Notes under the pieces: generated by a model
Seen by the model: the letters and a program-made list of their open reading frames with translations, nothing else
Told to the model about the DNA's origin: nothing
Databases searched by the model: none
Assembly (NCBI GenBank): GCA_964537875.1
Contig: CAZIDN010000009.1
Coordinates: forward strand, 3,043 to 67,042
Reading direction: 5' to 3'
Source of the DNA: an uncultured Eubacteriales bacterium
GTDB lineage: Bacteria > Acidobacteriota > Aminicenantia > Aminicenantales > UBA4085
DNA: 64,000 nucleotides
Position numbers and translations under genes: made by a program
In this document: positions 8,709 through 63,990 of the stretch, in pieces
Layout: each line of letters starts with the position of its first letter
Numbering within the stretch: the stretch's first letter is position 1

Positions 8709-11700
8709 CTATTTTTGTTGGACCCACTTGATGGCGTCCGCCAAAACAAAACGCTCCTCGTTTTTGTCCGTCAATTCGACTAGATTCTCGCCGGCCGCCA
8801 GCCGGAAATTTCCGATGAGGGTCCAGCCGGCCGGCACGTCCCTGAGGTCAACGATAACCTCTTCGACCCGGCCCTCGTGATAAATCAGGAAATGCTTTTT
8901 GCCCGGCTGCAGCCGCGGCACATTGAAGCCCCGGCCTGCCGCCTGTGTTCCCGCCGTGGTTCCACTCCCGCGCTGGCCGCCCGAGGGCGGGGCTCCCCCC
9001 ATGGCGAAGCCGCCGCGGCCTAACGCCATCACGTTTCCTCCCCGGCCCATGCCCGCGCCGATCCCTTCGTAATAAAAATAAATGCTATACTCTCCGGCCT
9101 GGTCGAGATGGACCGTCCAGGCGACCTTGCTCACGCCTTGGCCGGATTTCTTGACAAACGCGGAGCGGACGAATCGGCCGAAGAAATTCTGGATGATCAA
9201 GGGTTCCCAATGATCGGGCGGATTTAGCAAACTGCCGAACGTCCCATAGTCTGCCTCGCTTTGATCAGGCACAAAAATACGGCGGACCGTGCTTCGCAGC
9301 CAATTTTCCCGCCCCTTGTCGGCAAGCTTGAAACCCGCGTCTTCATTGTCGACGATGTATTCTCCTTCTGCTCCGGGCGAGGCCGGGATATAAGGTCGAG
9401 CCGATTCGCCGTCGAACGGCTTGACGCCCGGCTTCGGCTGTTGATTGCTGAAGGGAAGGGTGAACATCCCGGGCAGGTTGCGCGACATCGTGGTATCGAT
9501 CGTTGTCATGGCCGATGCCTGATCCAGGACAATGCCAACCGCTTTGACGGTCTGGGCGGGCACGAGGACCGTGCGCGTTTCCGGCGCCGAGGCCGACACC
9601 CCCATCACGCCGCCCATTCCGCCTCCGCCCCGGGCGCCGAAACCGCCCATCGTGGCCAGATTGACCTTGATGACGCCTTCCTGGTTCGTTGGATTCGTTA
9701 CCTGGAATTTGATCTGGAACTTAGTCTTTTCTTTGTCGATGACTCGGTAGCTCTGGACGTCGTCGAACAGGAAGCCCGGCAAACCCTTCTGCTCGTACCA
9801 GGACGCGATCGTTTTGTCTAGATCCAAACGTCCCAGGCCGGCGATGAAATCCTCCAAGGATTTTCGGGTGATCGGCTTGAAACGCCGGTCCTTGAGAAAC
9901 GCGATCAGCCGGTCGTCGAAGTCGGCCGCCCCGAGCTTGGCCCGGATGAGAATCAAAAGAGCCTTTCCTTTTTGCTGCAGAATCGGGATGACCGGCTGGT
10001 TCTCCCGGCCGGAGAGTCGAATCGCCTCGGCCAAAGAATGGTCCATCAGAAACTTGTTGATTTCATTCTGGAGCGTGTTGCTCCCCTGGCCGAGGCGCAT
10101 CGGGCCTAAAGTGGGTGAACCGGCCCGCTCCTGAAGGTAAGATTCCAGCGCATAGCCGAAGAGAGGCCACTCCGCGATATTGAGGGGAGAAGCGTAGGCC
10201 ACGAAATTGGGGAAAATATTGAAGGCGGCTTCGGAATTCGTCTCGACCAGGAAGCCCAGGGGAGCCCGCTGCTGGCCGCCGAATAGACCCGGCTGCGTCG
10301 CGATCAGGTTGGATTGGATAAAACGGTTGAACAAGACGCGCTGAATGTCCTTCGGACTTATTTGGCCGCCTGCTCTCGCCGTCATCGCCCGTTGGCCCGC
10401 CGCTCCGGCCCGACCGCCCAGGCCTGCCATCAGGCCGGCCCTGAATTCGGCCCCGGCGCACAGGACTCCCATTTCTGGCAGAAAAACCAACTGCGGCTGG
10501 ACGTGCTCCTGGGCCATGGTCCAAAGCCGGTTATAGCTGGTGATATGGATCGGAATTTCGACGAGAGAAAGCTGTTTGTAGGGATAATTCAAGCCCAGTA
10601 CGACCTCATATCCGTCTTTAATCTGCTTAATCAGCTGGGGCAAATCCCCGGCGATTTCCTTAAGCTTGGGCGTGAATCGGTCGTGCCCGTCAAGGAGCAA
10701 AAGAGAATATTGGACTCCATCCACCGTGACGGTTTTTTTCTCGTAACGGCCCAAAGTCAGGGAGATTTGGGGAAGAAGAGTCTCCGGTTGAAAGACATAA
10801 GTTTTTTTTCGGCCGGCGTTTTCGATTGTCGGAATGCCCTGAGAAATGGCCGTCAAGTTCTCAGGCGTCTCGACGGACAGGGTAAAGCGGCTATTATCTT
10901 TCTTCATGAGCGAGGGGAAGAGCAGAGATTCGGGAAGCCCCGGCCGCGGATACCAGCCGCATTCAGGAGTCAGATGGACAAAATCCGGACTGATCACGGC
11001 ATAGCGCTTGGGTACGGAAACCATCCATATCTTGAGGGGCGTATCGCGTTTCGTATCGTCGATATCCAGGTAGCAATAGCCTTCGTCGATCGTCCCCGAA
11101 TAAGACAGCGAGAGACGGATCTCGCTGCCCGGCGGAATCAGTTCCTTCGCCTCGACGGCGACGAGATGATGATTTTTGCGATAGGGCAGCGCGCCGGATT
11201 CGCCCTTGAGCTCGCTGATCCGGAGCCCCGGATTGAGAGAAAGATAGATCGTTTTCAGGGCAACATCATTGTTGTTGGCCAGGGTGAGATCGGCCGTTGC
11301 GGTAATCGTTTTTCCTTCATGACGCAGGCGGATATTGCAGCCGAGAAGGGTCAGCGCCGGCTTCTCTGCTACTTCCCGGCTCTCTGCTTTAATCGCTTTT
11401 CGCAAATCCCGGGCCGTAGTGACGCCGTGAAGATACGTATAGCCGAGTCCGGCCGCCGCGGCGACGGCGAGCAGGGCCAGAATCCCCAGAATCCTGTTCA
11501 ACCCGGGAGACTGGCGCAGCCTTTTCATGAGCAGGGCGGAAATCAGGATCAATCCCGCGCCCAGGAAAAAGTACATCCCTCGGAGAAGAACGAGCTGGGG
11601 CAGATTGCCCAGGCCGATAAAATCCGAGTACATGACCGGCGTGTAAAAAGCGAAGCTGTCAAAGGCAAAAGAGTAACGGGGACCGATCACGATCAGGGAG

Positions 11701-12263
11701 AGGAATATGTAGGATAGGGTCAGAAGATAGATGATCGCTTGACTGCGGATCAAGGAGCCGATAAAGATCGGCAGCCCGATCATGAAGACAAGGGTCGGCA
11801 GGCTGAGGAGCCCGACGTAAAGAAGATATGAGGACCCGGCAAAAAGCGTGTGGGAAAAAAAGACGTGGATGATGAAGGTGATGAGAAGGACGACGAAATT
11901 CAAGACGGCGAACACGCCGAAGATGCCCAAAAATTTCCCCAGCATATATTGCCCGTTGGAAAAAGAATGGGCGAAAATCACTTCAGACGTATCCTGCTTC
12001 CGGTCGCGCTTCAGGAATTCCGTGGCCAGGAATACGGCCATGATCCCCTGAAAGACATTGAGGAGCTTGATGACGATCAGAGGAAAAGCCCCGGAAAGCG
12101 CCCGGCTGAAGTAGAAGCCCGAATAGGCGGGCAGGGCGATAGTGACCATGACCAGGATCAGGACGGCCACGGCTAATCCGGAAAAGATGCGGAATCCCCA
12201 AGAACGGAGAAGCAGTTTGGCTTCATACCGGGCGATGCTTGCGACAGTTTGTGTGGCGCTCAT
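8709..12263 (-). CDS. Large ABC-2-type permease fused to an M1-aminopeptidase-like ectodomain (no HExxH) and a C-terminal golvesin/xanthan-lyase-like beta domain
   Basis: About 7 N-terminal hydrophobic segments (IARYEAKLLLRS...KRDRK...QYMLGKFLG), a large soluble region, and a C-terminal GWTLIGNFRLAAGENLVELTD...ADAIKW. Lies directly after the ABC ATPase. Domain calls are by motif recognition. Confidence 0.72.
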   Translation of the reverse strand: MSATQTVASIARYEAKLLLRSWGFRIFSGLAVAVLILVMVTIALPAYSGFYFSRALSGAFPLIVIKLLNVFQGIMAVFLATEFLKRDRKQDTSEVIFAHSFSNGQYMLGKFLGIFGVFAVLNFVVLLITFIIHVFFSHTLFAGSSYLLYVGLLSLPTLVFMIGLPIFIGSLIRSQAIIYLLTLSYIFLSLIVIGPRYSFAFDSFAFYTPVMYSDFIGLGNLPQLVLLRGMYFFLGAGLILISALLMKRLRQSPGLNRILGILALLAVAAAAGLGYTYLHGVTTARDLRKAIKAESREVAEKPALTLLGCNIRLRHEGKTITATADLTLANNNDVALKTIYLSLNPGLRISELKGESGALPYRKNHHLVAVEAKELIPPGSEIRLSLSYSGTIDEGYCYLDIDDTKRDTPLKIWMVSVPKRYAVISPDFVHLTPECGWYPRPGLPESLLFPSLMKKDNSRFTLSVETPENLTAISQGIPTIENAGRKKTYVFQPETLLPQISLTLGRYEKKTVTVDGVQYSLLLLDGHDRFTPKLKEIAGDLPQLIKQIKDGYEVVLGLNYPYKQLSLVEIPIHITSYNRLWTMAQEHVQPQLVFLPEMGVLCAGAEFRAGLMAGLGGRAGAAGQRAMTARAGGQISPKDIQRVLFNRFIQSNLIATQPGLFGGQQRAPLGFLVETNSEAAFNIFPNFVAYASPLNIAEWPLFGYALESYLQERAGSPTLGPMRLGQGSNTLQNEINKFLMDHSLAEAIRLSGRENQPVIPILQQKGKALLILIRAKLGAADFDDRLIAFLKDRRFKPITRKSLEDFIAGLGRLDLDKTIASWYEQKGLPGFLFDDVQSYRVIDKEKTKFQIKFQVTNPTNQEGVIKVNLATMGGFGARGGGGMGGVMGVSASAPETRTVLVPAQTVKAVGIVLDQASAMTTIDTTMSRNLPGMFTLPFSNQQPKPGVKPFDGESARPYIPASPGAEGEYIVDNEDAGFKLADKGRENWLRSTVRRIFVPDQSEADYGTFGSLLNPPDHWEPLIIQNFFGRFVRSAFVKKSGQGVSKVAWTVHLDQAGEYSIYFYYEGIGAGMGRGGNVMALGRGGFAMGGAPPSGGQRGSGTTAGTQAAGRGFNVPRLQPGKKHFLIYHEGRVEEVIVDLRDVPAGWTLIGNFRLAAGENLVELTDKNEERFVLADAIKWVQQK

Positions 12264-12310: not shown

Positions 12311-12504
12311 CTAATATCAACGCAATAAAATGACATCCCCGTATGGGCAGCGCATAGGCCGTCCTAAAGCCCCCGTAGCGGAGGGGGGCCCCGTCGGCTT
12401 TTCCGACGGGGGGAACCGACGGGACTGGTTCCCCCGGGCCCGGGGGCTAAGGGCGGCCTATGCGCCGCCCAGACATTGTCACTTTATTTATTACGTTTGT
12501 ATTA
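12311..12504. mobile_element. ~195-bp MITE/REP-like element, copy 1 (imperfect TIRs, internal IRs and hairpin core)
   Basis: Termini (C)TAATATCAACGCAATA and TATTACGTTTGTATTA; inner IR 12344-12374/12442-12471; homologous to 63557-63755. Confidence 0.75.
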
Positions 12505-13404
12505 ATGTTGGCCGTCTGCGGACTGCATGAAGTAAACATAGGCGTCCTCGAGGTTGGGTTCCACAGACTCCGCCGGGCCGTCGGCATAATTTTCCGCGAC
12601 GATGCGGAGCTCATAGCCGGCCTCCGAGGGAACCGCCGAGATCACTTGATACTTAGTCTTGAAAAAGTCCAGTTCCTGGGAGGTAATCGAGGCCTTCCAG
12701 ACCTTCCCCTGGACCTTGGCCGCCAATTCCGCCGGGGTGCCGTTGAAGACGAGGTTGCCTTCGTTCAACAGGGCAATCCGGGAGCAGGTGGAGGAGATAT
12801 CGCCCACGATGTGCGTAGAGAGAAGAATGACCTTTTCCTGCCGGGAAAGATCGGAGAGGAGATTGCGAAACCGAACCCGTTCCTCAGGGTCCAGGCCGAC
12901 TGTCGGCTCATCGATGATCATGATCTGGGGATCGCTGATCAGGGTCTGGGCGATTCCCAGCCGGCGCTTCATTCCTCCCGAGAGCTTGCTGGCTTTGCGG
13001 TCCCGCGCCTCATAGAGCCCGACGTCTTCGAGCGTTTTTTCAATCAGAGTATGCCGCCTTGACCTGGGGCGAATCCCCCTCAGGCAGCCCACGTAGTCCA
13101 GAAACTCCCAGACAGTCAGTCTGGCAAATGAGGTGAATTCCTGGGGCAGGTAACCTGTCAGCTGACGGATCTTCTTGCGGTCTTTCCCTAGATCCAGGCC
13201 GTTGATCAGGACCCGGCCGGCTGTGGGTTTGAGAAGAGTTACCAGGATTCGGATGAGGGTGGTCTTCCCGGCGCCATTGGGGCCGAGAAGACCGAACATT
13301 CCCTTTTCGATGTCCAGATTGACATCTTTGAGCGCGACGGTGTTTCCCGGATAGCGATGAGTCAAACCTCGGATTGTAATAGGGGATCTGCTTTCTTCAG
13401 GCAT
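12502..13404 (-). CDS. ABC transporter ATP-binding protein
   Basis: Walker A GPNGAGKTT, signature LSGGMKRR, Walker B IIDEPT, H-loop STHI. Confidence 0.97.
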   Translation of the reverse strand: MPEESRSPITIRGLTHRYPGNTVALKDVNLDIEKGMFGLLGPNGAGKTTLIRILVTLLKPTAGRVLINGLDLGKDRKKIRQLTGYLPQEFTSFARLTVWEFLDYVGCLRGIRPRSRRHTLIEKTLEDVGLYEARDRKASKLSGGMKRRLGIAQTLISDPQIMIIDEPTVGLDPEERVRFRNLLSDLSRQEKVILLSTHIVGDISSTCSRIALLNEGNLVFNGTPAELAAKVQGKVWKASITSQELDFFKTKYQVISAVPSEAGYELRIVAENYADGPAESVEPNLEDAYVYFMQSADGQH

Positions 13405-26605: not shown

Positions 26606-26668
26606 GGTTCTCTTCCATTTCATATGGGAAGGAAAGGGAAACGGTCCGGGGACGGCTGAAGCGACCAT
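26606..26668. repeat. Partial copy of the element at 63814-63990
   Basis: 57/63 identity to the reverse complement of 63921-63983. Confidence 0.75.
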
Positions 26669-26802
26669 CGACCTTTTTATTCCCCCCTAATTGCCTAGGG
26701 GGGTAGGGGGATTAGAAAGTTAAATTTCCGGCCGGCGAAGTTGTCTGAGCTTCCCGGCGAACGTCCGTAAAATCGAGGCCGGGAAGCGAGTTCTAACCCC
26801 GC

Positions 26803-30975: not shown

Positions 30976-31041
30976 GGGGTCAAACCTACTCGTTACGCAC
31001 GTAACCCTGGAGAATTATGCGTAAAGAGTAGGTTTGACCCC
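30976..31041. repeat. 66-bp REP-like palindrome (GGGGTCAAACCTACTC...GAGTAGGTTTGACCCC)
   Basis: Perfect 16-bp terminal IR; member of a family with copies at 32245, 37024, 40418, 43799 and 53497. Confidence 0.9.
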
Positions 31042-32244: not shown

Positions 32245-32310
32245 GGGGTCAAACCTACTCGTTACGTATAATTTCTAAGGGAAGCATGCGTAACGAGTAG
32301 GTTTGACCCC
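32245..32310. repeat. 66-bp REP-like palindrome
   Basis: GGGGTCAAACCTACTCGTTACG...CGTAACGAGTAGGTTTGACCCC, a perfect 22-bp IR. Confidence 0.9.
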
Positions 32311-32926: not shown

Positions 32927-33874
32927 CTAACGACGGATCGTGACGTCGGTCTCCACCGTGAAAAACTTATAGTCCTTGAGCGTGACCTGCAGCTCGGATT
33001 TGCGTATTTTGCGCGTCCCTCCCGGAGTGGTTTGGGAATAGTCTTCTTCGACCGTAAAACGGCTCGGGAATCGAATCCCATTTTTTTCGTACTGGTATTC
33101 CGTCGTGAAACGCAAGGTGGGTTTGGCCTTGAGCGCTTGGGCGTATTTCAGCGTTTCCTCGTAGTTTCCCAAAGATTCTTCCTGCCATTCGATCTTGAAA
33201 ACGCTTCCGTCCGCCGGGCTGACCCAGGCCCGGCCGTAGAGCCATCTCGCATTGCCCGGCTCGCGAGGAACCACCCTGATCACCAAGGCCGGCTTCCGCC
33301 AAATCTTTACTTCATCTTCGACCAAATAGGAATGAATCCGCTGGGCCGTGTCTCCCAGAAGCCCGATCGGTCCGAAGGCGAGAAATTTATAGTTGAATCG
33401 AAGAGTTTTCAACGGAGCGTCCTCGACGCGGCAGGGCTTGCCGTTTTCCCGGATGAGAATGCGCCTCTCCTCTTCCAGCCCGGTTTTACGAATGAGTTGA
33501 TAATCATAAGAATAGGCATACTCCTCCAGCTTCCAGCCTCCAGGCCGCATCATGACTCGATACGGATTGAAAATCCGCTCTCGTACATCCTCCTGAGAGA
33601 TGAAAAATAGGGCGATGCGATCCAGTCGGAGGCAATATTCCAGCGATTTTTTGAGAACATCGTTGAGTCGTTTCTGGTTGAAGGCGAGATTCTCATCGGC
33701 ATCGAGCCCGCCGATCGTCCGGATCAATTCAAGCTTTGCCGCCAAGTTGGCGTCCCATTTCCCGCTCTTCTCATTGTGGATAATAGGGACACTGTTCATA
33801 GTCTCGATTTTTTGGGCCGAGGTGAATGCCGCGACGAATATTATGGCCAAAAAAAGAATAGCTGTTTTTCTCAT
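32927..33874 (-). CDS. Secreted hypothetical protein, VWA-partner family (paralog 1)
   Basis: Signal peptide; shares EYC..L, YDYQ, ENG, GPIGL, LYGRAW, KNGIRFPS and KFFTVET with three neighbours. Start at ATG 33874. Confidence 0.8.
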   Translation of the reverse strand: MRKTAILFLAIIFVAAFTSAQKIETMNSVPIIHNEKSGKWDANLAAKLELIRTIGGLDADENLAFNQKRLNDVLKKSLEYCLRLDRIALFFISQEDVRERIFNPYRVMMRPGGWKLEEYAYSYDYQLIRKTGLEEERRILIRENGKPCRVEDAPLKTLRFNYKFLAFGPIGLLGDTAQRIHSYLVEDEVKIWRKPALVIRVVPREPGNARWLYGRAWVSPADGSVFKIEWQEESLGNYEETLKYAQALKAKPTLRFTTEYQYEKNGIRFPSRFTVEEDYSQTTPGGTRKIRKSELQVTLKDYKFFTVETDVTIRR

Positions 33875-33965
33875 ACGCTTCCCCCTTTCCTGATGAACCA
33901 TAATTCTCCTCTTGGATTAAACCCACTCAATTCGCAAAAGAGAAAATTCAAATTGATCAATATTT

Positions 33966-36014
33966 TCAAATAATTTTTATCCTGCGGCTGACCTCGGTTT
34001 TCGCCCCCGAATTTTTATCCTGAGCGACGAGTGTCAAAGTGTAATCTCCTGGCTCGAGCCCGGGGAGAGGAAGCGAAAGGAGCAAGATATCCAGCTTCCC
34101 CTGACGCTTGCCGTTGAGAATCGAGGGAGAGAGAGGGATCGCCTCTCCTCCAGCGCCCGCTTTTAGATAAGCTGAAAATTCGATATTAGCATTAGGGATG
34201 TTATGAACCATCGATCGAACCATGGCCAGCACTTCGGAAGTTCCCTTTGGGATCTCATCCATGACTGGCGCCAGGCGGTTCGTGAGAAAAGGAAAGAGGT
34301 CTTTGAGTCCGCTCGCAAATTTATCGATAGGTTCTTTGTCCTGTTTTGTCAGCCTGAAATAGGCTACATCTTTGTCCGCCGTCGGGACAAGCAACAAAGG
34401 CGAATCCAATTGCAGCCCGGATGTAACGGTCTGCGGAACCGTTGCCGCGCCTCGCGCCCGCGCCGCCTTGCCCGTCTGCATATTCCGCAGGATCATTACG
34501 CAATCATAGACGCCGGGGTTTAGGGGAATCATGCCGTAATACACGAGGCGTTTTTTCGAGATATCCGGGATCTCGATGTCCCCGCCTTTGCTCACGATCA
34601 TATTATTGTCCTGGTCGATGACGATACTCACCACCTCCATCGGAGGTTTCATAATCTCTTCGAGACGCTCCCAGGGCAGCTCGGCCATAAAAATTAAATG
34701 CGTTCCGGATTCGACCTGGCAAGGCAAAACAACTAAAGCCAATTCGACCGGGGTTTGAAATTGGGCGTTCTCGCTGAAGGCCAGGTCCATCAGATGGAGC
34801 TCTTTTTCAAACTTTGAAAATTGGGAGAAAGGCTTCGGGTTATAATAACCGCTTTGCGAAGATACGAGACAATCCTCGCGGTTCACCTTGACCTTAATCT
34901 CGTGGAATTGTCCGTCCCATTTTGCGTCGATGTAATAGCCGAGGACATAGTAGTTGCCGGTCGCATTTTGAATGCCGGAAGCGATTTTTTCCGCTTGAGC
35001 GACGTCCTCGTAATATTGACCGCCGGACAGAGCGGCGAGATTTTGAAGCGACAGATCTCCTCGATCATCCGGAGATATAAAATGGGAACGCGAGCCCATG
35101 GTATTGATCGTGTAGATAGGGCTCGAGGATGAACTGAATTCCTTGCCCATGTCCTCGTAGCTCTTTTGGAAGACCATGTCGCCGACCAGCGTCGATCGGG
35201 CGAAACCGGCCGAAAAAAAGACAATATTCTTATAGCCGGGAATATACCGCAGCGTTTTCGCGAGCTCGGTCATGACCGAAACATAGTTTTTGCGCAGCAT
35301 TTCAGCATAATCTGCCTCCGGGTTGTAGGGCGGAGCAAGAAAAGCCAAAATGCCGCCCCCGCCTTCTCCGAGAGGTTCGGTCGGCAGTCCTCCGCTACCC
35401 GAGCCCGGAACGCCTTTCAGCTTTTCGATCGCCTTCCTGACTTTTTTATGGTCCGTGCTTGAGTATTCATGCATCTTCAACCCTATTCGCGGCTGAAAGG
35501 AGAGAATGCCGACCTCGTCGGTCGGCTGGACCTGATTGTCCATGAAATGAAAAGCAGCCTGCTTTGATCGTGCGAAGCCCTGCAAGTCGTTCTGCTGGAT
35601 GTCAAAAATGAAAAAGAATTTTCTATTTAGTTTTGGGAGCTGCGTAGGGGGCAGCACCGCCGTTTTTTGAAGTTCGGCGACCTCCTTTTGTTCAGGCTTT
35701 TTCCCCGGCACGGCGAGGAAATGTTTTTCAAAGTCTGTGATGGTTTTGGCCAGTCCATTATCAAAAATCTCAAAATCCGATTTATTCAAATCCTTAACGG
35801 GTCTTCCCTGCTTATCCGTGACATAGACCTGGACGAGCTTCAACGTGACGGAGACTTCATACTGGAGCGTTGGCTGCTGGGCTTTTTCTTGGGCAGGATC
35901 GATATTCCCCGCAGCCGGCTGAAACGGGAAAAACAATGATAAGAAGACAATAAAAAAACGGACGAGATGGCTGCGCCGAGAGGCTGGCCACGACCATCTT
36001 AATTTATTGCCCAT
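33966..36014 (-). CDS. VWA domain protein, Acidobacterial type (paralog 1)
   Basis: QYEVSVTLKLVQVYVTDKQGRPVKDL..DF, YYVLGY, DGQFHEIKVKV and GYYNPKPF. Start at ATG 36014. Confidence 0.85.
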   Translation of the reverse strand: MGNKLRWSWPASRRSHLVRFFIVFLSLFFPFQPAAGNIDPAQEKAQQPTLQYEVSVTLKLVQVYVTDKQGRPVKDLNKSDFEIFDNGLAKTITDFEKHFLAVPGKKPEQKEVAELQKTAVLPPTQLPKLNRKFFFIFDIQQNDLQGFARSKQAAFHFMDNQVQPTDEVGILSFQPRIGLKMHEYSSTDHKKVRKAIEKLKGVPGSGSGGLPTEPLGEGGGGILAFLAPPYNPEADYAEMLRKNYVSVMTELAKTLRYIPGYKNIVFFSAGFARSTLVGDMVFQKSYEDMGKEFSSSSSPIYTINTMGSRSHFISPDDRGDLSLQNLAALSGGQYYEDVAQAEKIASGIQNATGNYYVLGYYIDAKWDGQFHEIKVKVNREDCLVSSQSGYYNPKPFSQFSKFEKELHLMDLAFSENAQFQTPVELALVVLPCQVESGTHLIFMAELPWERLEEIMKPPMEVVSIVIDQDNNMIVSKGGDIEIPDISKKRLVYYGMIPLNPGVYDCVMILRNMQTGKAARARGAATVPQTVTSGLQLDSPLLLVPTADKDVAYFRLTKQDKEPIDKFASGLKDLFPFLTNRLAPVMDEIPKGTSEVLAMVRSMVHNIPNANIEFSAYLKAGAGGEAIPLSPSILNGKRQGKLDILLLSLPLPGLEPGDYTLTLVAQDKNSGAKTEVSRRIKII

Positions 36015-36039
36015 CCTTCGCTCTCCTCCTCGTTCATCT

Positions 36040-37004
36040 TCAATATTCGACTTTGGTTTCCACGGTAAAAAACCGGTAATTCTCATATCGGATCTCCGTC
36101 TTCGTCTGCGTGAACCCGCTGCTTCTCGAGCCCGAATATTTTTCATTAAAGACAGTCCGGCTGGGAAACCTCAGGCCGTTCTTAAGAATTCCGTATTCAT
36201 GAACCGTGGTCAAGATGGGCTTCAATCCTCGGCTTTTTGCAGCCTCCAGGATTTTTTCAAAACCGGCCAGGGATTGATCTTCTACTTCCATCTTAATAAC
36301 GCTCGAATCTGTCTTATCCACCCAGAGAGTCCCATAATTGGGCTTGCCTTCGATCGAGACCTTGGGCTTCGCTTTGATGACATAGGTTTCCCGGCCCCCG
36401 ACCCGATCCTGTTTGATAAATTCATAATCATAAATATCATGCCACTCGCGCCCAAAAAATCCCACCGGCCCGAAAACGGCTTTCCGGGAAAAAAATCTCT
36501 GTGTCTTCAGGTGCGCGTTCTTCAGATTTTTCTTTCGTCCATTTTCTTCGAGCAGCGTCCTTGTCTCTTCGATAGTCTCGCCCTTTTTCACAAGCTGATA
36601 ATCATAAACATATGAATTCCTGTTCGCCCTGCGCTTGAAGGAGGGAGCGGTTCCATAAGTGATGGCTGCTCCCTCTCCTCCTGACACGACCACTGTCCCT
36701 CCGCTGCGGAATTCATAAATATCCTCTTTGATCTTCTCCTGGCAGATAAAAAAAGCGCGGAACTGGCCAATTTCCGGCAATACTCCGCACAATTCTGGAG
36801 GATGGCAGTCATATCCGGACGGCTCGAAGCTGACGATTTTTGCGGATTCTTTTCAGGAATAATGCCTGCAGAGGCTGTCTGCGATTCTCGATCCAGCCTG
36901 AAATCCGTAAGCGCGGAGAAACTCGCTGAAACCGGAACAGAGATCCAAGGGGCTATGAGAAAGAAGCCGATAAGCAAACTCAAGAAACGGTTTCTATTTT
37001 TCAT
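36040..37004 (-). pseudogene. VWA-partner paralog 2, split by a one-base frameshift in a T7 run
   Basis: ORF 37004-36588 carries the signal peptide and CAEYCRKLASSALF. ORF 36792-36040 carries FICQEKIKE onward. One extra T at 36748-36754 joins them in frame, matching the paralogs. Confidence 0.8.
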
Positions 37005-37023
37005 CGCCCTTCTCCTTTACGCC

Positions 37024-37089
37024 GGGGTCAAACCTACTCATTACGCAAGTTCCCCTGGAGAATTGCGCGTAACGAGTAGGTTTGACCCC
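37024..37089. repeat. 66-bp REP-like palindrome
   Basis: GGGGTCAAACCTACTC...GAGTAGGTTTGACCCC. Confidence 0.9.
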
Positions 37090-37101
37090 CATTTATTGAA
37101 T

Positions 37102-38040
37102 TCATCTTATGATTTGACTTTCCGTGGCCACAGTGAAGAACTTGAAGTCCTTGTAGGTCACGGTCGTTTCAGACCGGACAAAGGCTCGGCCCAAATTGCC
37201 GACATAGGCTTCCTCGATGACGAGGCGGCTGGGAAACCGGATGCCGTTTTTTTCGGCATTGAATTCCGAGATTAGGGTAAGCCGGGGCTCCCGTTTGAAT
37301 CTCGCTCCTCTCTGCCGAAAAATATCATATTGGCCGACACACTTTTCGCTCCATTCGATCTTTAAGATATCGAATGTGGCGGCATCGATCCAGGCCTTTC
37401 CATAGAGGTTCCTCGTCTCCGGTGCATCTTGCTTGGGCTTGACATCGATAACGAGGACAGGCCGCCCACGGATTTTGTCCTTCCGGGCAATTTTGTAGTC
37501 GTAGGTCGGCAGGAAGCGATGGCCGAATAGGCCGACGGGCCCGAACAAGGCATTGCCGTAGGCGAAGACCGAAGTCTTAAGCATCGCATTCGGCTCATTC
37601 GTTTTCTTCCCGTTCTCCTCAAGGAGCGTCCGGCTCTCGCGGATGAACTGGCCCGAACGAACGCACTGGTAGTCGTAAAGATAGGAGTTGTTGATCTTGC
37701 GCGGCGGCAGGGAATAGGTCGAAACAGTCTGGCCGGCGCCCCAGGGGACCCAACTCCAATCATCCCGGATATTCTCAGGCTTCATGCGGTCAAGGATTGG
37801 ATTGATGCTTTCCTCGATCTCTTCGCGGCAGAAGAAATCAAGGACGGCGCTCTCAAGCTTACGGCAGTATTCGGCTGTGTTCATGAGAAGGGCGTTGAGA
37901 TCGATCGCAGCGGAACCTGCCGTCCCCTTAGCGGCTTGCGGATGGATTCCCGCAGCCCCGGCGAGAACGCTAAGACCAATCATTATCCCCATCCATGGCC
38001 GAAGGGATTTTCTTGTTGCTTTTTTCCCGCTTTCCCTCAT
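37102..38040 (-). CDS. Secreted hypothetical protein, VWA-partner family (paralog 3)
   Basis: Signal peptide; AEYCRKL, YDYQC, LYGKAWID and KNGIRFPS. Confidence 0.85.
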   Translation of the reverse strand: MRESGKKATRKSLRPWMGIMIGLSVLAGAAGIHPQAAKGTAGSAAIDLNALLMNTAEYCRKLESAVLDFFCREEIEESINPILDRMKPENIRDDWSWVPWGAGQTVSTYSLPPRKINNSYLYDYQCVRSGQFIRESRTLLEENGKKTNEPNAMLKTSVFAYGNALFGPVGLFGHRFLPTYDYKIARKDKIRGRPVLVIDVKPKQDAPETRNLYGKAWIDAATFDILKIEWSEKCVGQYDIFRQRGARFKREPRLTLISEFNAEKNGIRFPSRLVIEEAYVGNLGRAFVRSETTVTYKDFKFFTVATESQIIR

Positions 38041-38049
38041 GGTTTTCCC

Positions 38050-40071
38050 CTATTCGATGATGAAATTGGTGGCGATTCGGGACGATGCGCCGCTCGCCGC
38101 GTTCTCCGCGACCAGGTGCATTGCATACATATCCGGTTCGACTTCCGGGATCTGAAGCCGAATGAATAACGCCTTTTCGCCCTTCTCATCCTTTTCGGCA
38201 ACAACCGCCAGCGGAACCGGGATCTCCTTGCCCGTGACACTGTCTAATAAAAAGGCCGACAGCTTGAGGTTGGCTCCATTGCCGCTCTCTGCGGCGCACC
38301 GGACAGCGGCCCAGATCTCGGTGTTTCTTTTCAGGGATTTTTCGAGATAGGGAGCGAATTGGGCAGGATCGAACAGAAACGCCTTCGCGAAAAGGGCAGA
38401 GCTTCCCTTAGTGCTGGAGCCCTTCGCCGCATTCTCTCCGATATAGACGGCCCCTCTTTCTGGAACGAGCAGGAGCGGCGGGTAGAGTAGAAGCTCGTTG
38501 GCCTTCCGTTCGGGAACGACTGCCGTCGCACCGGCCACAGCAGCCCGGCCCGTCTCCAGGTTCCTCAGCACGACTCGGCATTTGTAATTTTCCGGCGGAA
38601 CAGAAAGTACGGAGAAATTAAAAGTTTTATTCTGTTTAATCACTTTGAAGTCCGATTCGGTGCGGCGGAGGTCGACGATGTCATCGGCGGCATTAAACAC
38701 AAGGCTGACGGCCTCGACCTTTGTCCCGGCGACCTCGCCAAGTTTTTCGAAGGGGATCTCCGCGACGAGGCCAAGATTGTTCTGCGCCGCCGCGGAGCAG
38801 GCCAGGGCTTGCATCGCAAAACGCACCGGCGCTTGCGACAAGGGATTCTCGGCCAACGCCAGATCCACGAGATGGATCTGTTTCTCGAGGTCCGAATAAT
38901 CCGAAAACGGCTTGGGATCAGAATAACCGGCCTGGGCGCGGACCTCGCAGCCGGGACGGCTGACCTTCACTTTGATCTTATGGTACTTGCCGTCCCAGGT
39001 CTCTCTTATCGAGTATCCCAAAACGTAGTATGTTCCGGTCAGGGTTTGAATCTTCTCCAAATGCTCGGAGGAGTTTACGGCGTTGCCGAGATACTGCCCG
39101 CCCGTGGTGGAGGCCAATTCACGGAGCGTCACGGCCCCCGTTTGCGACTCAGGTTTCGTTAATAAGGTATACGGGTCCTCTGTATTGATCGGATAAATGG
39201 AGATGTTGGAAGTGGCCAGCTCTTTGCCGAGCTGCGTGTAGATATAGCGCAAGTCACTGTTCTTACTCTCTGGGCTATTGATGAAGGGTCCAGGGATTCC
39301 ACTCGAGAAAAGGATGATCTGTTTCTGGCCGGGGACGTAGCGCAGGGCCTGGGCAAATGTGGTCAGAGCCCAGATGAAATTGCGGGCGACGAATCGCGCC
39401 TCCGAACCGGAGCGGGCCACGGCTATCTTAACGCCTCCCCAATCAACTTCCTCCCGCCCACCCATGGCCTTCGGGTCCATGAGGACCCCCATCATTTTTT
39501 GAAGGCCGAGCGATTCGACCGCCTTCCGGATCTTCAGATGATCCGTCGTCTGAAACTCGTGGATCTGGAGGTCTCTCTTTCCAGAAAAGGAGATGACTCC
39601 GAGTTCGTCGGTAGGCATGAGCTTGGTATCAATGAAGTGCAGGGCCGCCTGCCGAGCTAGACGAACGCCTATCCCATCGGTATAGGCGAAATCGAAAAGG
39701 AAATAAAGCTTGCGGTTCAGGAGGCGGGGCGTGGTGGCGAGTGGCGTCGGGGCGAGCTTCTCATCGGCAGGCGCCTTTGCGGACGGAAAGGAAAGGACAT
39801 GCTTTTCGAATTCGGTCAGGATTTTCTGTTCTCCGTTGTCGTAAAGGATGAAATCGTCTTTGCTCAGGTCGGTCACTGGGTTCCCTTTCTTGTCCGTGAC
39901 GATGACCTGGATGAGCTTCAGGGTTACTCTGGCTTCGTACTGAATAGGCTTCTGGGGCCGGACGGCTTCCTGGGATGCTGAGCTTGGTTGAAAAAGAGGT
40001 CCCAAGATAAGGCATAAGCCGGCAATAATAAGGAGAATGGAGGATTTTGTAACGAGATTTATTTTCCTCAT
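38050..40071 (-). CDS. VWA domain protein, Acidobacterial type (paralog 2)
   Basis: QEAVRPQKPIQYEARVTLKLIQVIVTDKKG, YYVLGY, WDGKYHKIKVKV and RNLETG. Confidence 0.87.
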   Translation of the reverse strand: MRKINLVTKSSILLIIAGLCLILGPLFQPSSASQEAVRPQKPIQYEARVTLKLIQVIVTDKKGNPVTDLSKDDFILYDNGEQKILTEFEKHVLSFPSAKAPADEKLAPTPLATTPRLLNRKLYFLFDFAYTDGIGVRLARQAALHFIDTKLMPTDELGVISFSGKRDLQIHEFQTTDHLKIRKAVESLGLQKMMGVLMDPKAMGGREEVDWGGVKIAVARSGSEARFVARNFIWALTTFAQALRYVPGQKQIILFSSGIPGPFINSPESKNSDLRYIYTQLGKELATSNISIYPINTEDPYTLLTKPESQTGAVTLRELASTTGGQYLGNAVNSSEHLEKIQTLTGTYYVLGYSIRETWDGKYHKIKVKVSRPGCEVRAQAGYSDPKPFSDYSDLEKQIHLVDLALAENPLSQAPVRFAMQALACSAAAQNNLGLVAEIPFEKLGEVAGTKVEAVSLVFNAADDIVDLRRTESDFKVIKQNKTFNFSVLSVPPENYKCRVVLRNLETGRAAVAGATAVVPERKANELLLYPPLLLVPERGAVYIGENAAKGSSTKGSSALFAKAFLFDPAQFAPYLEKSLKRNTEIWAAVRCAAESGNGANLKLSAFLLDSVTGKEIPVPLAVVAEKDEKGEKALFIRLQIPEVEPDMYAMHLVAENAASGASSRIATNFIIE

Positions 40072-40193
40072 ATCAAGGCTCCGAAATCCCCTGGTTTCCG
40101 CATAATTGCTGTTTTTTTTATCATAGCGCTAATTGGCACGATAAGAAATTGTTAGGAAAAAGTTTTTGCCTGGACATCTGTGCCCTAAGTTGC

Positions 40194-40210
40194 AGCATTA
40201 AATGTGCCAA
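40194..40210 (-). promoter_or_regulatory. sigma54 (-24/-12)-type promoter upstream of VWA paralog 2
   Basis: Minus strand TTGGCACATTTAATGCT (GG-N10-GC), conserved in the paralogous upstream region at 43626-43642. Confidence 0.6.
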
Positions 40211-40417
40211 GAATCAAGGGTTTCCTTATGGGGAAAATGTTTTAGAAGCCGTGGGTAATGTCCTTTTTTTTGGACATTTGACTTCGTTTTTCCACGCCAA
40301 ATTGTAAGCAAGCTTAGTTCTATAAAATTGTTTTTCATCACTGAGATAATTTCTGCCTTTTTTGCTATGGAATGACATGCGTGGCCCAGCACGAATTTCT
40401 CGCCTTCAATTTTCGAA

Positions 40418-40480
40418 GTCAAAGCTACTCACTTCGCGAGATTTCTTGGGGAAAGATGCGTAAAAAGTAGCTTTGACCCC
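40418..40480. repeat. REP-like palindrome (degenerate 66-bp family copy)
   Basis: GTCAAAGCTACT...AGTAGCTTTGACCCC. Confidence 0.8.
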
Positions 40481-40483
40481 GGT

Positions 40484-41401
40484 TCATCTTATGATTTGGC
40501 TTTCCGTCGCCACAGTGAAGAACTTGAAGTCCTTGTAGGTCACGGTCGTTTCAGACCGGACGAAGACGAGGCCGCCCTCGCTCACGTAGGCCTCCTCGAT
40601 AAACAGTTTGCTTGGGAAGCGGATGCCGTTTTTTTCGACCGGGAACTCCGAGCGAATGGTGAGACGGGGCTTACGGTTGTATTGTTCTGCCCTTTTGAGG
40701 GTGATTTCGTAATGATTGACACGCTTCTCGCTCCACTGGATCTTGAGAATATCGCCGGTGGCCGCGTCGATCCAGGCTTTGCCATAAAGATTCCGGGCTT
40801 CCGGCGCGTCGGGTTTGGGCATCGCATCGATGATGACAGCAGGCCGCTTTTGGATTTTATCCTTCCCCACGATCTTGTAATCATAATAGGGTTGAGAACC
40901 TTCGGCGAAAATGCCGATAGGAGCCATCAAGACGTACCCGAAAAGGAAGTTCAAGGTCTTCAGCTTCGCGTTCGGCTCGTTTATCTTCTTGCGGTTCTCT
41001 TGAAGGAGATTGCGAACCTCGCGAATCTCCCCGCCGGCCCGGATGCATTGATAATCGTAGATAAGCGTCCGCTTGACCTTCGGGGATGGCGGCACAACGG
41101 CGATTCCCGTCCGGGTTTCGCCCATGCCGGCCGATGCATCGCCCTCAGTACGTACGGAAGTCCATGTGGTCAACGTCGCTTTCGACTGCTTCAGGTCGAG
41201 CCTGGGATCGACGACCTCGACGATCTCCTCCTTGCAGATGTAATCGAGGGCAGCGCCCTCGAGCTTGCGGCAGTAGGCCGCCGCTTTATCGAGCAGAGTG
41301 GCCAGGTCCGGCGCTTGATTTTGGGGAAATTCCTTCCCCCCCCCGATTCCGGACAGAATCGCGACAAGAATTATTGTTAGCCCACCCTTGAGAGCGTTCA
41401 T
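40484..41401 (-). CDS. Secreted hypothetical protein, VWA-partner family (paralog 4)
   Basis: Signal peptide; AAYCRKL, YDYQC, LYGKAWID and KNGIRFPS; C-terminal 25 aa identical to paralog 3. Confidence 0.85.
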   Translation of the reverse strand: MNALKGGLTIILVAILSGIGGGKEFPQNQAPDLATLLDKAAAYCRKLEGAALDYICKEEIVEVVDPRLDLKQSKATLTTWTSVRTEGDASAGMGETRTGIAVVPPSPKVKRTLIYDYQCIRAGGEIREVRNLLQENRKKINEPNAKLKTLNFLFGYVLMAPIGIFAEGSQPYYDYKIVGKDKIQKRPAVIIDAMPKPDAPEARNLYGKAWIDAATGDILKIQWSEKRVNHYEITLKRAEQYNRKPRLTIRSEFPVEKNGIRFPSKLFIEEAYVSEGGLVFVRSETTVTYKDFKFFTVATESQIIR

Positions 41402-41420
41402 TTCTACCCTCCTCTCCCTT

Positions 41421-43505
41421 TTAGGGATCTCGGCTGACTCCGATTTTATCGAGCAACGTCGGCGGTTTCAGATTCGCCCGCTCGACCTTAAAGTCGTTGG
41501 CGATAAGCGATGATTTCCCGCTCGTCTCTTCCTCAGCCTTGAGATAAAGGCGATAGGGGCCGGGTTCGACCTCGGGGATATCGAGGCGCGCAAGGTAGGC
41601 TTTTCCCGATGGTTCGTCCTTTTTCGAGAGAAGTGTGAGAGGAACGGCGACAACATCCCCGAATTCTAGGTTCTCGAGAAAAGCCGAGATTTTGATCTTC
41701 GGCGCCGCAATCTTGGCGACGGCGCATCGAAACGAGGCCCAGATCTCGGAAGGGCTCGAAAGCGTCTTCTCCGTATAAGGGACATACTGGCGGGTGTCGA
41801 AGCCGACGATTTCAGAGAGGGAACGAGTCGGCGCCTTCCCGGACGCCTTTGGAGTGAAACCCTTTAGATAGAACGCCGCCCTCTCGGGCTTCCATAACAA
41901 GGGCGGGAGGAGCGCGATTCCGGAAGCTTTGGCTTCAGGGACAGCGGTCGAGACTCCCGCGACCGCAGCCGCTCCCGTCTCCAGGTTCCGCATGACGATC
42001 CGGCATTTGTAGGCGCCCGGCGGGACGGCCAGGACGGACAGCAAGTATGCCCCCGACTGCGCGACCTTCGTCAAATCCTCCTCGCTCCGGCGGAGCTCGA
42101 CGATCTCGTCCGACGGATTGAAGACAAGGTTGACGACTTCGACCTTTTTCCCCACGACGCTACTGATTTTTTCTCTCGGGATCCAGGCCGCGAATACGAG
42201 GTTCCCGGCCGGATCCGACGAGAAAGGCAGGGCCGTCATCTCGAACCGGGCAGGCGTCTGTGACAGAGGCGTATCGGCTAGGGCCAGGTCGACGAGCTGG
42301 ATCGTTTTCTCGAGGTCCGTGTAATCCGCGAAGGGTTTCGGATTGAAATACCCCCACTGGGCGCGGACATCGCAGCCCGGCCGCTTTACGGTCACCTGGA
42401 TTCTGTGATACTTGCCGTCCCAGGTCTCGCTGACCGGGTAGCCGAGGACATAATACGAACCGGTCGATGCATGGACCTTTTCGACAAATGGTTCATAATT
42501 ATACATATTGAGCCAGTATTGGCCTCCCGTTTCATAGGACGTTTTGGCCAGGGTCCAGGCGCCCGTCAGCCAATCGCTGAGTGTGATCCCACCCGTGTAC
42601 AAAGCGTGGACCGCGACGTTCGACGTCTGCAGTTCCTTCAGAAGGATCTCGTATGGATGATATTTTGCCGGAAGGGCAACCGGGTATGCCACCGGATAAG
42701 GGACTCCCTCGGAAAAAAGTACAAGATGCTTCTGGCCCGGGATGGAGCGGAGCGCGATGGCCAAAGCAGTGAGAGAATCGACGTAGTGTAGATAATTAAG
42801 GCGCCACATTTCCGCCATATCGAGTTTAGGCATTTCGGGCATGGGTTGAGTATATTTTGTTTCTGGCCGCTCATCGGCAAGACCTGCAGCCTTCAACTCC
42901 CTTTGATATTTGTCTTCCAGGTCCTCGAATCGGTCGGCCGAATCGCGGAGCCCGATTTTAGAGACGAGATTGCGGACCTTCTGATGATCGGTCGTCAGAT
43001 AGAGATGGACCTGGAGGCGTTTGAGGAGCGAGTAGGAGACAACTCCGATCTCGTCGGTAGGCATAATTTTGGTATCGAGGAAATTCCGTACCACCTCTCC
43101 CATTTTTCGGACGCCGGCGGGACTGTTGTAGGCGAAATCGAGGAAAATGAAAAATTTGCGGTTGAGAAGGCGCGGCGCCTGAAGGGGCGTCGCCGCGACG
43201 CGTTCTTCGACAGGCTTTTCCGGGGATGGGAGAGAGAGAACATGCTTTTCGAACTCCGTGAGATTCATCTCCTGCCCGTTGTCAGTGAGGACGAAGTCTT
43301 CTTTCTTGAGATCCGTTACGGGTTTTCCTTGCTTGTCCAAGACAATGACCTGGATGAGCTTGACGGTGACTCTGACTTCATACTGGAGAGGCTTTTGAGG
43401 CCGGACCGCCTCCTGGGGGACGGAGCTCGATTGAGAGGATAGCCCTGCGATAAGGCACAAGCCTGTAACGGGAAGGAAAAATGTGAATTTCTTAATTTTC
43501 CACAC
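41421..43505 (-). CDS. VWA domain protein, Acidobacterial type (paralog 3)
   Basis: QEAVRPQKPLQYEVRVTVKLIQVIV, YYVLGY, WDGKYHRIQV and GYFNPKPF; GTG start. Confidence 0.87.
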   Translation of the reverse strand: MWKIKKFTFFLPVTGLCLIAGLSSQSSSVPQEAVRPQKPLQYEVRVTVKLIQVIVLDKQGKPVTDLKKEDFVLTDNGQEMNLTEFEKHVLSLPSPEKPVEERVAATPLQAPRLLNRKFFIFLDFAYNSPAGVRKMGEVVRNFLDTKIMPTDEIGVVSYSLLKRLQVHLYLTTDHQKVRNLVSKIGLRDSADRFEDLEDKYQRELKAAGLADERPETKYTQPMPEMPKLDMAEMWRLNYLHYVDSLTALAIALRSIPGQKHLVLFSEGVPYPVAYPVALPAKYHPYEILLKELQTSNVAVHALYTGGITLSDWLTGAWTLAKTSYETGGQYWLNMYNYEPFVEKVHASTGSYYVLGYPVSETWDGKYHRIQVTVKRPGCDVRAQWGYFNPKPFADYTDLEKTIQLVDLALADTPLSQTPARFEMTALPFSSDPAGNLVFAAWIPREKISSVVGKKVEVVNLVFNPSDEIVELRRSEEDLTKVAQSGAYLLSVLAVPPGAYKCRIVMRNLETGAAAVAGVSTAVPEAKASGIALLPPLLWKPERAAFYLKGFTPKASGKAPTRSLSEIVGFDTRQYVPYTEKTLSSPSEIWASFRCAVAKIAAPKIKISAFLENLEFGDVVAVPLTLLSKKDEPSGKAYLARLDIPEVEPGPYRLYLKAEEETSGKSSLIANDFKVERANLKPPTLLDKIGVSRDP

Positions 43506-43759: not shown

Positions 43760-43864
43760 GGGGTCAAACCTCAAAATTCAACAAACTCGAAAAGAATTGG
43801 GCTCAAAACTACTGATTACGCAAAATATCTAGGGGAAAGGTGCGTAATGTGTAGCTTTGACCCC
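43760..43864. repeat. Composite REP: orphan GGGGTCAAACCTCAA arm plus a degenerate 66-bp palindrome (43799-43864)
   Basis: The first arm resembles the 53497 variant; the second unit has TTACGCA...TGCGTAA and GTAGCTTTGACCCC. Confidence 0.75.
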
Positions 43865-53470: not shown

Positions 53471-53496
53471 CTTGATTTCTCTCCTGGGTCATCTCC

Positions 53497-53580
53497 GGGG
53501 TCGAACCTCAACAATCAACATGTTAAACGCCGACGGGATAAGAAGCTAGGAAAAAATGTTGATTGTTGAGGTTTGACCCC
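53497..53580. repeat. 84-bp long-arm variant of the GGGGTCAAACC palindrome
   Basis: GGGGTCGAACCTCAACAATCAACAT...ATGTTGATTGTTGAGGTTTGACCCC (24/25 IR). Confidence 0.85.
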
Positions 53581-53849
53581 GATCATTCTATTCCTCGCGA
53601 TGAGTATAGTGGCAAAAGGGGAAAAAGGCAAAAATGCTGGAACCTGCCGCGGCATGCCTCCCCCCGTCCGCGCTCAAGACTCCCCTTACCCACCACCATG
53701 AGCCTCGGGCGAGCGTGGGCATCCTACGCCACGCGACAGTCTTTTCACGAAATGCCGGGATTTGACTTCTCAGCTTCGGCACTATTAAAATTGTGCTGGA
53801 ACTGCCCAGAAGTCAAAAAGGATCACTTTTTCTGAAACTGAATTAGACA

Positions 53850-61001: not shown

Positions 61002-61145
61002 TAAGTGATTGCAAGGAGGCGTCTGCATCACCCCATAGGCCCCCATAGCGGAGGGGGGGCCCATCGGTTTTTCGATGGGGGGAACCGACGGGACTGGTTC
61101 CCAAGGGGGCCGGGGGTGATGCAGACGCCTCCTTGCAATCACTTA
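61002..61145. repeat. 144-bp element: perfect 33-bp IR arms around the same hairpin core as the 12311/63557 elements
   Basis: TAAGTGATTGCAAGGAGGCGTCTGCATCACCCC (61002-61034) pairs perfectly with 61113-61145. Core CATAGCGGAGGG...GGAACCGACGGGACTGGTTCCC. Confidence 0.85.
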
Positions 61146-63574: not shown

Positions 63575-63755
63575 ATAAAGTGACAATGTATGGGCGGCGA
63601 TTAGGCCGCCCTCAAGCCCCCATAGCGGAGGGGGACCCCGTCGGCTTTCCCGACGGGGGGAACCGACGGGACTGGTTCCCCGGGGCCCGGGGGCTGCGGG
63701 CGGCCTAATCGCCGCCCGAACGGGGATGTCATTTTAACTATTACGTTGATATTAG
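63557..63755. mobile_element. ~199-bp MITE/REP-like element, copy 2
   Basis: CTAATACAAACG...CGTTGATATTAG termini; perfect 20-bp inner IR 63592-63611/63698-63717. Arms match copy 1 in reverse complement, while the core matches in direct orientation. Confidence 0.78.
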
Positions 63756-63813: not shown

Positions 63814-63990
63814 AATTATTGGGATCTCTTCCTTTGTGTGTGGGGAAAAATCGTTTGGGAACCGATCCGGAGACAGCCTCGCTCCCCATCCGGGTTTTTA
63901 ACGTCGTTCCCGAGCCCTCCATGGTCGCTTCGGCCGTCTCCTGACCGTTTCCCTTTCCTCCCCACACGAAATGGAAGAGAACCAATTATT
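63814..63990. repeat. ~177-bp element bounded by imperfect inverted repeats
   Basis: TCTCTTCCTTTGTGTGTGGGGA (63825-63846) pairs imperfectly with TCCCCACACGAAATGGAAGAGA (63959-63980). The right part recurs at 26606-26668. Confidence 0.65.

Follow-up and report, generated by a model that had tools for sequence, protein, structure and literature searches.

The locus described here raises the question of how the center of a short transposable element can come to point in opposite directions relative to its own ends, and whether such an element acts as a switch. Within the window (the whole stretch of 64,000 nucleotides that was analyzed), an earlier note had described two copies of a MITE-like element in which the core lies on the same strand and the arms are exchanged, and direct alignment reproduced this description. 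The core of copy 1 (12375-12441) matches that of copy 2 (63622-63688) at 63 of 67 positions on the same strand vs. 27 of 67 against the reverse complement, and the 85-nt center matches at 78/85 positions on the same strand vs. 57/85 in reverse. For the arms, the reverse complement of the right arm of copy 1 agrees with the left arm of copy 2 at 31 of 32 positions (23/32 in the like-sided comparison), and the left arm of copy 1 agrees with the reverse complement of the right arm of copy 2 at 29 of 31 aligned positions plus a 4-nt indel (24/31 against the left arm of copy 2). The paired changes between the inner repeats, GCGCATAGGCC/GGCCTATGCGC in copy 1 and GCGATTAGGCC/GGCCTAATCGC in copy 2, are likewise present, and the element boundaries lie about where the note had placed them, at 12312-12504 and 63558-63754 when the TA dinucleotides are included. 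A separate repeat search of the window recovered the same arm and core relations together with a third core copy (placed by this search at 61053-61115), locating the inner repeats at 12341-12384/12431-12474 and 63592-63620/63689-63717; additionally, a 43-nt core pattern has two matches in the 64-kb window and none in 100 shuffles. The features are as follows.

12312-12504, no strand assigned: copy 1, an IS630-derived MITE with TA...TA ends, in the minority ("flipped") configuration, occupying the ATPase-permease spacer.
12312-12341, plus strand: left terminal inverted repeat of copy 1 ("arm A", TAATATCAACGCAATAAAATGACATCCCCG), matching the IS630-type terminal inverted repeat (TIR) consensus.
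12342-12368, plus strand: left half of the GC-rich inner inverted repeat of copy 1, containing an exchange point.
12368-12442, plus strand: core of copy 1, a three-way-junction motif (covariance model R1, 84.1 bits, E 1e-19, plus strand only; covariation).
12369-12375, 12376-12388 and 12389-12411, plus strand: within the copy 1 core, the P1 5' strand, the junction UAGCGGAGGGGGG and hairpin A, respectively.
12412-12432 and 12433-12442, plus strand: within the copy 1 core, stem-loop B (GGAACC[GACGGGACT]GGTTCC) and the P1 3' strand region, respectively.
12443-12472, plus strand: right half of the inner inverted repeat of copy 1.
12473-12504, plus strand: right terminal inverted repeat of copy 1 (the reverse complement of "arm B").
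63558-63754, no strand assigned: copy 2, of the same MITE family as copy 1, with TA...TA ends, in the majority ("canonical") configuration.
63558-63589, plus strand: left terminal inverted repeat of copy 2 (arm B).
63615-63689, plus strand: core of copy 2 (R1, 85.3 bits, E 6e-20), with stem-loop B at 63659-63679.
63721-63754, plus strand: right terminal inverted repeat of copy 2 (reverse complement of arm A), carrying the 4-nt GTTA/TAAC indel.
61002-61145, plus strand: copy 3, with a core at about 61038-61111 (R1, 78.7 bits), closed by an unrelated perfect 33-nt inverted repeat (61002-61034/61113-61145).
12502-13404, minus strand: gene for the ATPase of an ABC transporter, preceding copy 1 in the operon.
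8709-12263, minus strand: gene for a large membrane (permease-like) protein of 1184 aa, downstream of copy 1.

A protein 99% identical to the ATPase is encoded by an Aminicenantes MAG recovered from Lake Pavin sediment (L113), and the window was therefore assigned to the species group of that MAG. In orthologous operons that lack the element (ATPases about 75% identical in amino-acid sequence), the two genes are about 50-60 nt apart, and the copy-1 site is empty in L114 and L115. The terminal three bases of copy 1 form the TAA stop of the minus-strand ATPase gene, which holds for all four orthologous lineages, and an ORF of the ROK family ends 17 nt inside copy 2 (63558-63574), giving it a MITE-encoded C-terminus. 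A hybrid promoter-like site on the minus strand (12320-12291), with the -35 (TTGATA) in arm A and the -10 (TACTAT) in the flank, faces the permease-like gene and is a consensus match only. Copy 3 occupies a divergent intergenic region and resembles, in its outer sequence, a second ("class B") arm type. The window also holds a second hairpin repeat family, a 66-nt palindrome (GGGGTCAAACCTACTCGTTACGCA...TGCGTAACGAGTAGGTTTGACCCC) with copies at 30976-31041, 32245-32310, 37024-37089, 40415-40480, 43799-43864 and 53496-53581, which are placed between three tandem paralogous gene pairs (32927-43505) without a Pfam family. Another 66-nt repeat (ATGGTCGCTTCGGCCGTCTCCTGACCGTTTCCCTTTCC...GAAATGGAAGAGAACC) is present at 26606-26671 (minus strand) and 63918-63983 (plus strand) as inverted copies of 89% identity, one of them 160 nt downstream of MITE copy 2.

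The arms are terminal inverted repeats of the IS630 type. An arm 18-mer (CTAATACAAACGCAWTAA) was found at no fewer than 118 loci among the matches listed, spanning Nitrospirota, Desulfobacterota, Omnitrophota, Chloroflexota, Planctomycetota and other phyla, and paired 18-mer ends bound elements of 1104-1109 bp as well as many MITEs of 83-400 bp. The 1109-bp element carries two ORFs, one with HTH_29/32/33 and the other with DDE_3, which match positions 3-134 and 159-296 of NCBIfam NF033545 "IS630 family transposase" (97.5 and 83.1 bits). Because the arms are of the same type as the ends of this 1.1-kb insertion sequence (IS), copies 1 and 2 are assigned to IS630-derived MITEs, in agreement with the earlier designation as a non-autonomous element; they are 193-197 bp long and non-coding, have dozens of family members and show presence/absence polymorphism between relatives. 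TA...TA bounds all 60 TIR pairs and the two window copies and, with the relatives that have an empty site being rather distant, may be either a target-site duplication or the terminus of the element itself. The ends match IS630 rather than REP sequences and no Y1 transposase was found among the window ORFs, which sets the copies apart from REPIN / RAYT elements. A tblastn search did not find an IS630 transposase in the 64-kb window, the autonomous copies found being those of other MAGs, and the core, the element and the IS had no match in viral contigs, phage records or plasmid records. An extra canonical copy of the same MITE family lies upstream of the ATPase gene in contig L321 (about 10480-10720) and is absent from the window, which indicates recent mobility. 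IS630-ended MITEs of 83-400 bp without the core were also seen in many phyla and in a Nanoarchaeia MAG (L206-L320), many of them sharing a different inner palindrome (TGTCATTGCGAGG...CCTCGCAATGACA), a pattern that suggests a very widely spread superfamily with interchangeable interiors.

The orthologous copy-1 locus provides a direct comparison of the two states. A 24-mer from the 3' end of the ATPase gene retrieved the orthologous metagenome contigs L321 and L322. L113 and L321 carry the locus in the same flipped state as window copy 1. In L322 the element occupies the same TA, inside the stop codon of the ATPase gene, and arm B adjoins that gene, but the center matches the window on the reverse strand; this contig has the majority configuration together with private deletions. 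The match turns to the reverse strand after GGGCGGCGC in the left inner repeat and reverts to the same strand ahead of GGGATGTCA, just past the point where the right inner repeat ends on its outer side, a pattern that would fit one reciprocal exchange inside the repeat followed by one later substitution. Both switch points are located within the inner inverted repeat or on its margin, which shows that the center was inverted in place. L322 is one short-read contig; a chimera is unlikely, given its private deletions and the need for reads to span from arm to core. In the 3' segment of the ATPase gene the window, L113 and L321 are 95-97% identical and L322 is the most distant (92-94.5%), and in the 5' segment of the permease gene all three available pairs are about 91% identical. 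The flipped state is therefore common to three lineages that have diverged by 3-5%, and, with the divergent L322 unflipped, it follows that the center was inverted once, in their common ancestor, and has been passed on without change. The flip of the core that the earlier note had proposed is thereby supported at the locus itself, by L322; the part of that proposal that made the core a switchable cassette does not agree with inheritance of the flipped state across 3-5% divergence.

The relation between arms and core was then tabulated across genomes, as the earlier note had suggested. Elements were oriented by their core and their flanks compared like-with-like or crosswise, with calls made within families only; chaining orientations across families by alignment score was unreliable owing to small score differences and was not used. 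A total of 130 distinct complete elements were collected, 76 of them in 14 arm families. Both configurations occur in 5 of the 14 families, representing two TIR classes, with 67 copies in the majority vs. 9 in the minority configuration and no inconsistent assignments. Flipped copies were seen only in TIR-bearing families (9/45 copies vs. 0/31 copies of core hairpins without transposon-type arms). In half-element alignments, the arm-specific differences swap sides jointly in flipped copies, whereas those adjacent to the core stay with the core, and every exchange point of families F1-F5 and of the copy-1 site is located inside the sequence that the two inner-repeat halves have in common or at its outer border; the breakpoints in the GC-rich inner repeats that the note had described are thus upheld. 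Additional flipped copies are those of L260 and L292 and, among class B arms, for which the configuration was called by score comparison, L090 and L190. A flipped copy is present in the closed chromosome OY969586 (L088) and another in a Flye-style contig (L029), both judged to be long-read assemblies from their record names. Independent flip events are estimated at six or more, fewer than the flipped copies because flipped masters may have amplified. The arm on the 5' side of the core is IRL-like in one family and IRR-like in another. The sequence of the inner repeat differs from family to family, and a semi-conserved GCCRYCCT adjoins the core in the main families; this motif could in principle be a recognition site.

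The center of these IS630-derived MITEs is probably subject to a rare but recurrent inversion mediated by inverted repeats, which would be a passive result of palindromic architecture and not a programmed on/off switch. The element consists of three layers, namely AT-rich terminal inverted repeats of about 30 nt, a GC-rich inner inverted repeat of about 25-30 bp and an asymmetric center of about 75 nt, and in copy 1 the central 130 bp or so was turned in place by an exchange between the inner-repeat halves. As to the route, the two halves may have recombined reciprocally, or the template may have been switched across the hairpin while the DNA was being replicated or repaired; the sequence fits both. 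On an evolutionary scale such inversions are probably infrequent; they are inherited and have recurred in several subfamilies, and flipped elements are probably still mobilizable since their ends are intact. A templated exchange could also yield the paired "compensatory" changes of the inner repeat without selection on pairing. A rod-like fold is predicted for the element whichever strand is taken, with energies of -111.7 and -118.8 kcal/mol and z-scores of -7.7 and -9.8, and, as in hairpin-loop inversion, the exchange points lie inside or at the edge of stem-forming repeats and the events recur in five arm families. The confinement of flips to TIR-bearing families is not predicted by a purely passive hairpin mechanism, and amplification or transposition-linked repair could be its cause.

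What the inversion turns around is a conserved module; the earlier note had overlooked that the element is made up of two separate modules, IS630 ends and a conserved RNA-like cargo. The core 21-mer GGAACCGACGGGACTGGTTCC was found at a minimum of 112 loci among the matches listed, mostly in Aminicenantes MAGs, with four loci in one Yanofskybacteria (CPR) genome; some loci fall in MAGs labeled Eubacteriales or Clostridiales, which appear to be mislabeled because they carry Aminicenantes-like orthologs. Two MITE classes carry the core, which is also seen as solitary hairpins on unrelated stems and as tandem arrays; of 100 TIR-selected loci from other phyla, just 3 contain it. From these contexts it follows that the core is a cargo separate from the transposon ends. 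With differing flanks, its consensus reads 5'-P1, UAGCGGARGGGG, a variable hairpin, GGAACC[GACGGGACU]GGUUCC, P1'-3'.

Several lines of evidence argue for selection on the pairing of this module. P1 pairs with the segment just 3' of stem B and covaries (AGACGCA/TGCGTCT, AGGCACA/TGTGCCT, GACCCCG/CGGGGTC), with a mean of 5.72 of 7 pairs observed vs. 4.89 ± 0.15 with shuffled partners, and stem B has exchanged an A-U for a G-C pair in four loci. Covariation was 0.220 vs. 0.077 in shuffles for a MAFFT alignment, and 0.229 vs. 0.072 in shuffles for a model-fitted alignment of 102 distinct sequences, which is biased towards the model and in which 11 of 19 pairs were compensated and slid controls remained at or below 0.07. 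RNAalifold gave no useful structure on the plain MAFFT alignment because the length of hairpin A varies, and block-anchored parsing with a covariance model was used instead. This model (R1) gives the three window copies 79-85 bits, compared with 11 bits for the opposite strand. Counted over 87 distinct versions, the pairs of hairpin A are Watson-Crick in 637 cases, G.T in 44 and A.C in only 3; such a predominance of G.T over A.C, in elements that are inserted either way round, points to selection on a single strand. The core is thus most plausibly selected on one strand as a single-stranded molecule, presumably RNA. The same strand asymmetry is missing from the outer arms (42 G.T vs. 45 A.C) and is weak in the inner stem (47 vs. 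27). Rfam 15 gave no match at gathering score across the window, permissive Rfam searches of four core regions returned chance-level matches only (with SAM scoring highest, 17.8 bits where the threshold is 44.4), and no relevant literature was found on the core sequence, on ribozymes in Aminicenantes or on ribozymes in MITEs. A coding role for the core was rejected, the length differences of hairpin A not being multiples of three, and a promoter in the arm that drives the core was unsupported, there being no inward sigma-70-like site.

Variants of the core were recorded as well. One tandem array, in Saccharicenans subterraneus (L031, 3056-3338), consists of three units of 106 bp, of which units 1 and 2 are cut directly after the loop GACGGGACT and continue into an alternative hairpin. 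A second array (L198, 4730-5213) has four units of about 150 bp with AT-rich spacers and lies at the 3' end of a fucose-isomerase-like gene, a locus that seems conserved in L034, L060 (5988-6347) and L067. Hairpin A has been deleted independently in L322 (about 440-470) and L260 (3504-3550), between short direct repeats (G-runs or CGACGGG) and with the arms and the rest of the core retained. At 12433-12449 and 63680-63696 in the window, and in most Aminicenantes copies, P1 has a doubled 3' strand (CCGGGGnn, then CGGGGGC), so that the 5' strand can pair in two registers; minimal cores without the duplication occur in L031 and L059.

An alternative reading is programmed phase variation, in which the element would be an inverton and a serine or tyrosine recombinase acting at the inner repeats would switch the core RNA or the neighboring genes. 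This reading draws on the short segment flanked by inverted repeats, on the occurrence of both orientations at one locus in related populations, on the recurrence of flips in five arm families of two TIR classes, on the semi-conserved motif beside the core and on the selection of the core on one strand, by which orientation could matter. Nevertheless, it is judged unlikely. The flipped state of copy 1 is identical across its three lineages, and the skew between configurations tracks family relationships instead of an equilibrium. The 44 ORFs of the 64-kb window yielded no recombinase, integrase or transposase (by a Pfam scan of 40, of which 11 had no family, with the other 4 annotated separately), so that the transposase, invertase or RAYT sought in the earlier note did not turn up in this interval; a recombinase encoded outside the window could still act in trans. 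The comparison covers assembled contigs, in which a low-frequency minority orientation inside one population may be hidden. The inner-repeat sequences vary between families, and of the features that define invertons the flanking inverted repeats are present, but an adjacent recombinase (in the window) and an internal promoter are not. No sigma-70-like promoter and no intrinsic-terminator-like site was detected inside the elements, the invertible part included, although the promoter types of the host phylum may differ. Relative to co-directional flanking genes, the orientation of the core is evenly divided (20 vs. 20). The proposal that orientation tunes read-through within the operon therefore finds no support in these tests; when the center of copy 1 was re-inverted in silico, the hairpin of the operon-sense transcript differed in energy by 0.3 kcal/mol, a value on which an influence of orientation on hairpin stability at copy 1 was rejected as well.

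A bolder possibility is that the core is a functional strand-specific RNA (e.g., a new small ribozyme or a protein-binding RNA) riding in MITEs, with inversion acting as a heritable sense/antisense toggle in host transcripts such as the ATPase-permease mRNA. We regard this as quite unlikely; if it were true, every inserted MITE would amount to a genetic switch that is slow and can be reversed.

Both orientations could also arise by nested insertion, with the core, with or without part of the stem, being a small mobile unit that enters palindromic MITEs either way round. The modularity of the core (two unrelated arm classes, solitary hairpins and tandem arrays) and the many coreless MITEs bounded by the same IS630 ends are in keeping with such a unit, and a boundary located a few nucleotides beyond P1 would suit the exchange points of every family. 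However, flipped and unflipped copies of one family have the same inner-repeat sequence on both sides, the copy-1 locus fits one reciprocal exchange in the repeat plus one later substitution, no empty-center MITE with the arms and inner repeat of families F1-F3 was seen, and the core has no flanking target duplication, which together make nested insertion improbable. Ectopic gene conversion, a form of repeat-mediated exchange with a second element as donor, by which the center of copy 1 would have been overwritten from another copy paired invertedly through the inner repeat, can draw on the many similar copies per genome, on a palindromic inner repeat with which a donor can pair in either sense and on the paired "compensatory" changes, which could come from such templated repair. 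It is improbable as well, since it needs two elements where one suffices and the present data equally fit an intramolecular exchange. Finally, an assembly artefact, whether a segment orientation misresolved by a de Bruijn assembler or a chimeric joining, is extremely improbable even though short-read contigs often break here (L113 ends just past the element and L175 at both elements) and perfect repeats of 17-30 nt are longer than a small k, because final assembly k-mers and reads are in turn much longer than such repeats, the flipped copy-1 locus recurs in three independent assemblies (window, L113 and L321), and the flipped copies of L088 and L029 come from closed or long-read-type assemblies, which excludes a short-read artefact. 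The two ways in which, by the earlier note's own account, its observation might have been spurious are countered in turn: a misassembled locus by these same assemblies, and a single chimeric outlier by the presence of both configurations in several genomes and in five arm families.

The preferred reading, a rare inversion of the center between nested repeats, has partial parallels in known systems. Like other IS630-family MITEs, the elements have IS630 terminal inverted repeats and TA bounds, are short, non-coding and multi-copy and show presence/absence polymorphism; unlike them, they contain, instead of decayed transposase sequence, a conserved structured module, which is found outside MITEs as well and in both orientations. 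Parvovirus genomes switch between flip and flop by hairpin transfer during rolling-hairpin replication of a linear genome end, at a ratio of about 1:1. The asymmetric hairpin tip in two inverse-complement orientations relative to its stem is common to both systems, whereas the hairpin described here is internal to a chromosome and its ratio strongly skewed. Invertons such as fimS and hin likewise have short inverted repeats flanking a segment with two orientations at one locus, but in the present case no invertase was found in the window, the segment has no promoter, orientation is stable over species-level divergence and many dispersed copies exist. In the Correia repeat-enclosed elements of Neisseria, exchange is attributed to the terminal repeats, with the whole interior turning relative to the flanks. 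In-place inversion of these elements has been reported (Elbeyioglu et al., Microbiology 2017;163:31, as cited in PMC10969869 and PMC9778887), and to the extent conveyed by those citations they resemble the present elements as bacterial MITEs whose interior is inverted at a fixed chromosomal site; here, in contrast, the terminal repeats are fixed and only an inner cassette inside a nested repeat turns, and neither the organisms nor the transposon families are related. Small inversions of hairpin loops in the non-coding DNA of chloroplasts are described, in the review of the original work, as recurrent, independent across lineages and free of a dedicated enzyme (Kelchner & Wendel 1996, reviewed in PMC12371153), with spacer inversions of typically 4-50 bp (PMC12371153). 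They share with the present case a hairpin loop inverted between stem-forming repeats, and differ from it in that here the loop is a conserved structured sequence of 75 nt in a bacterial transposon and the inverted tract measures about 130 bp.

Combined, these results provide an orthologous before-and-after pair in which a nested inverted repeat turns the cargo of a MITE in place with the transposon ends fixed, a third layer of MITE plasticity besides insertion and excision and a caution for repeat annotation and for phylogenies based on such elements. They also bring to light an unannotated, strongly conserved, strand-selected three-way-junction motif that is abundant in Aminicenantes, present in CPR and carried by two or more MITE classes, making the core a candidate structured RNA in a phylum without a cultured representative. 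If this RNA is functional, the flip would supply natural sense/antisense pairs at the same locus.
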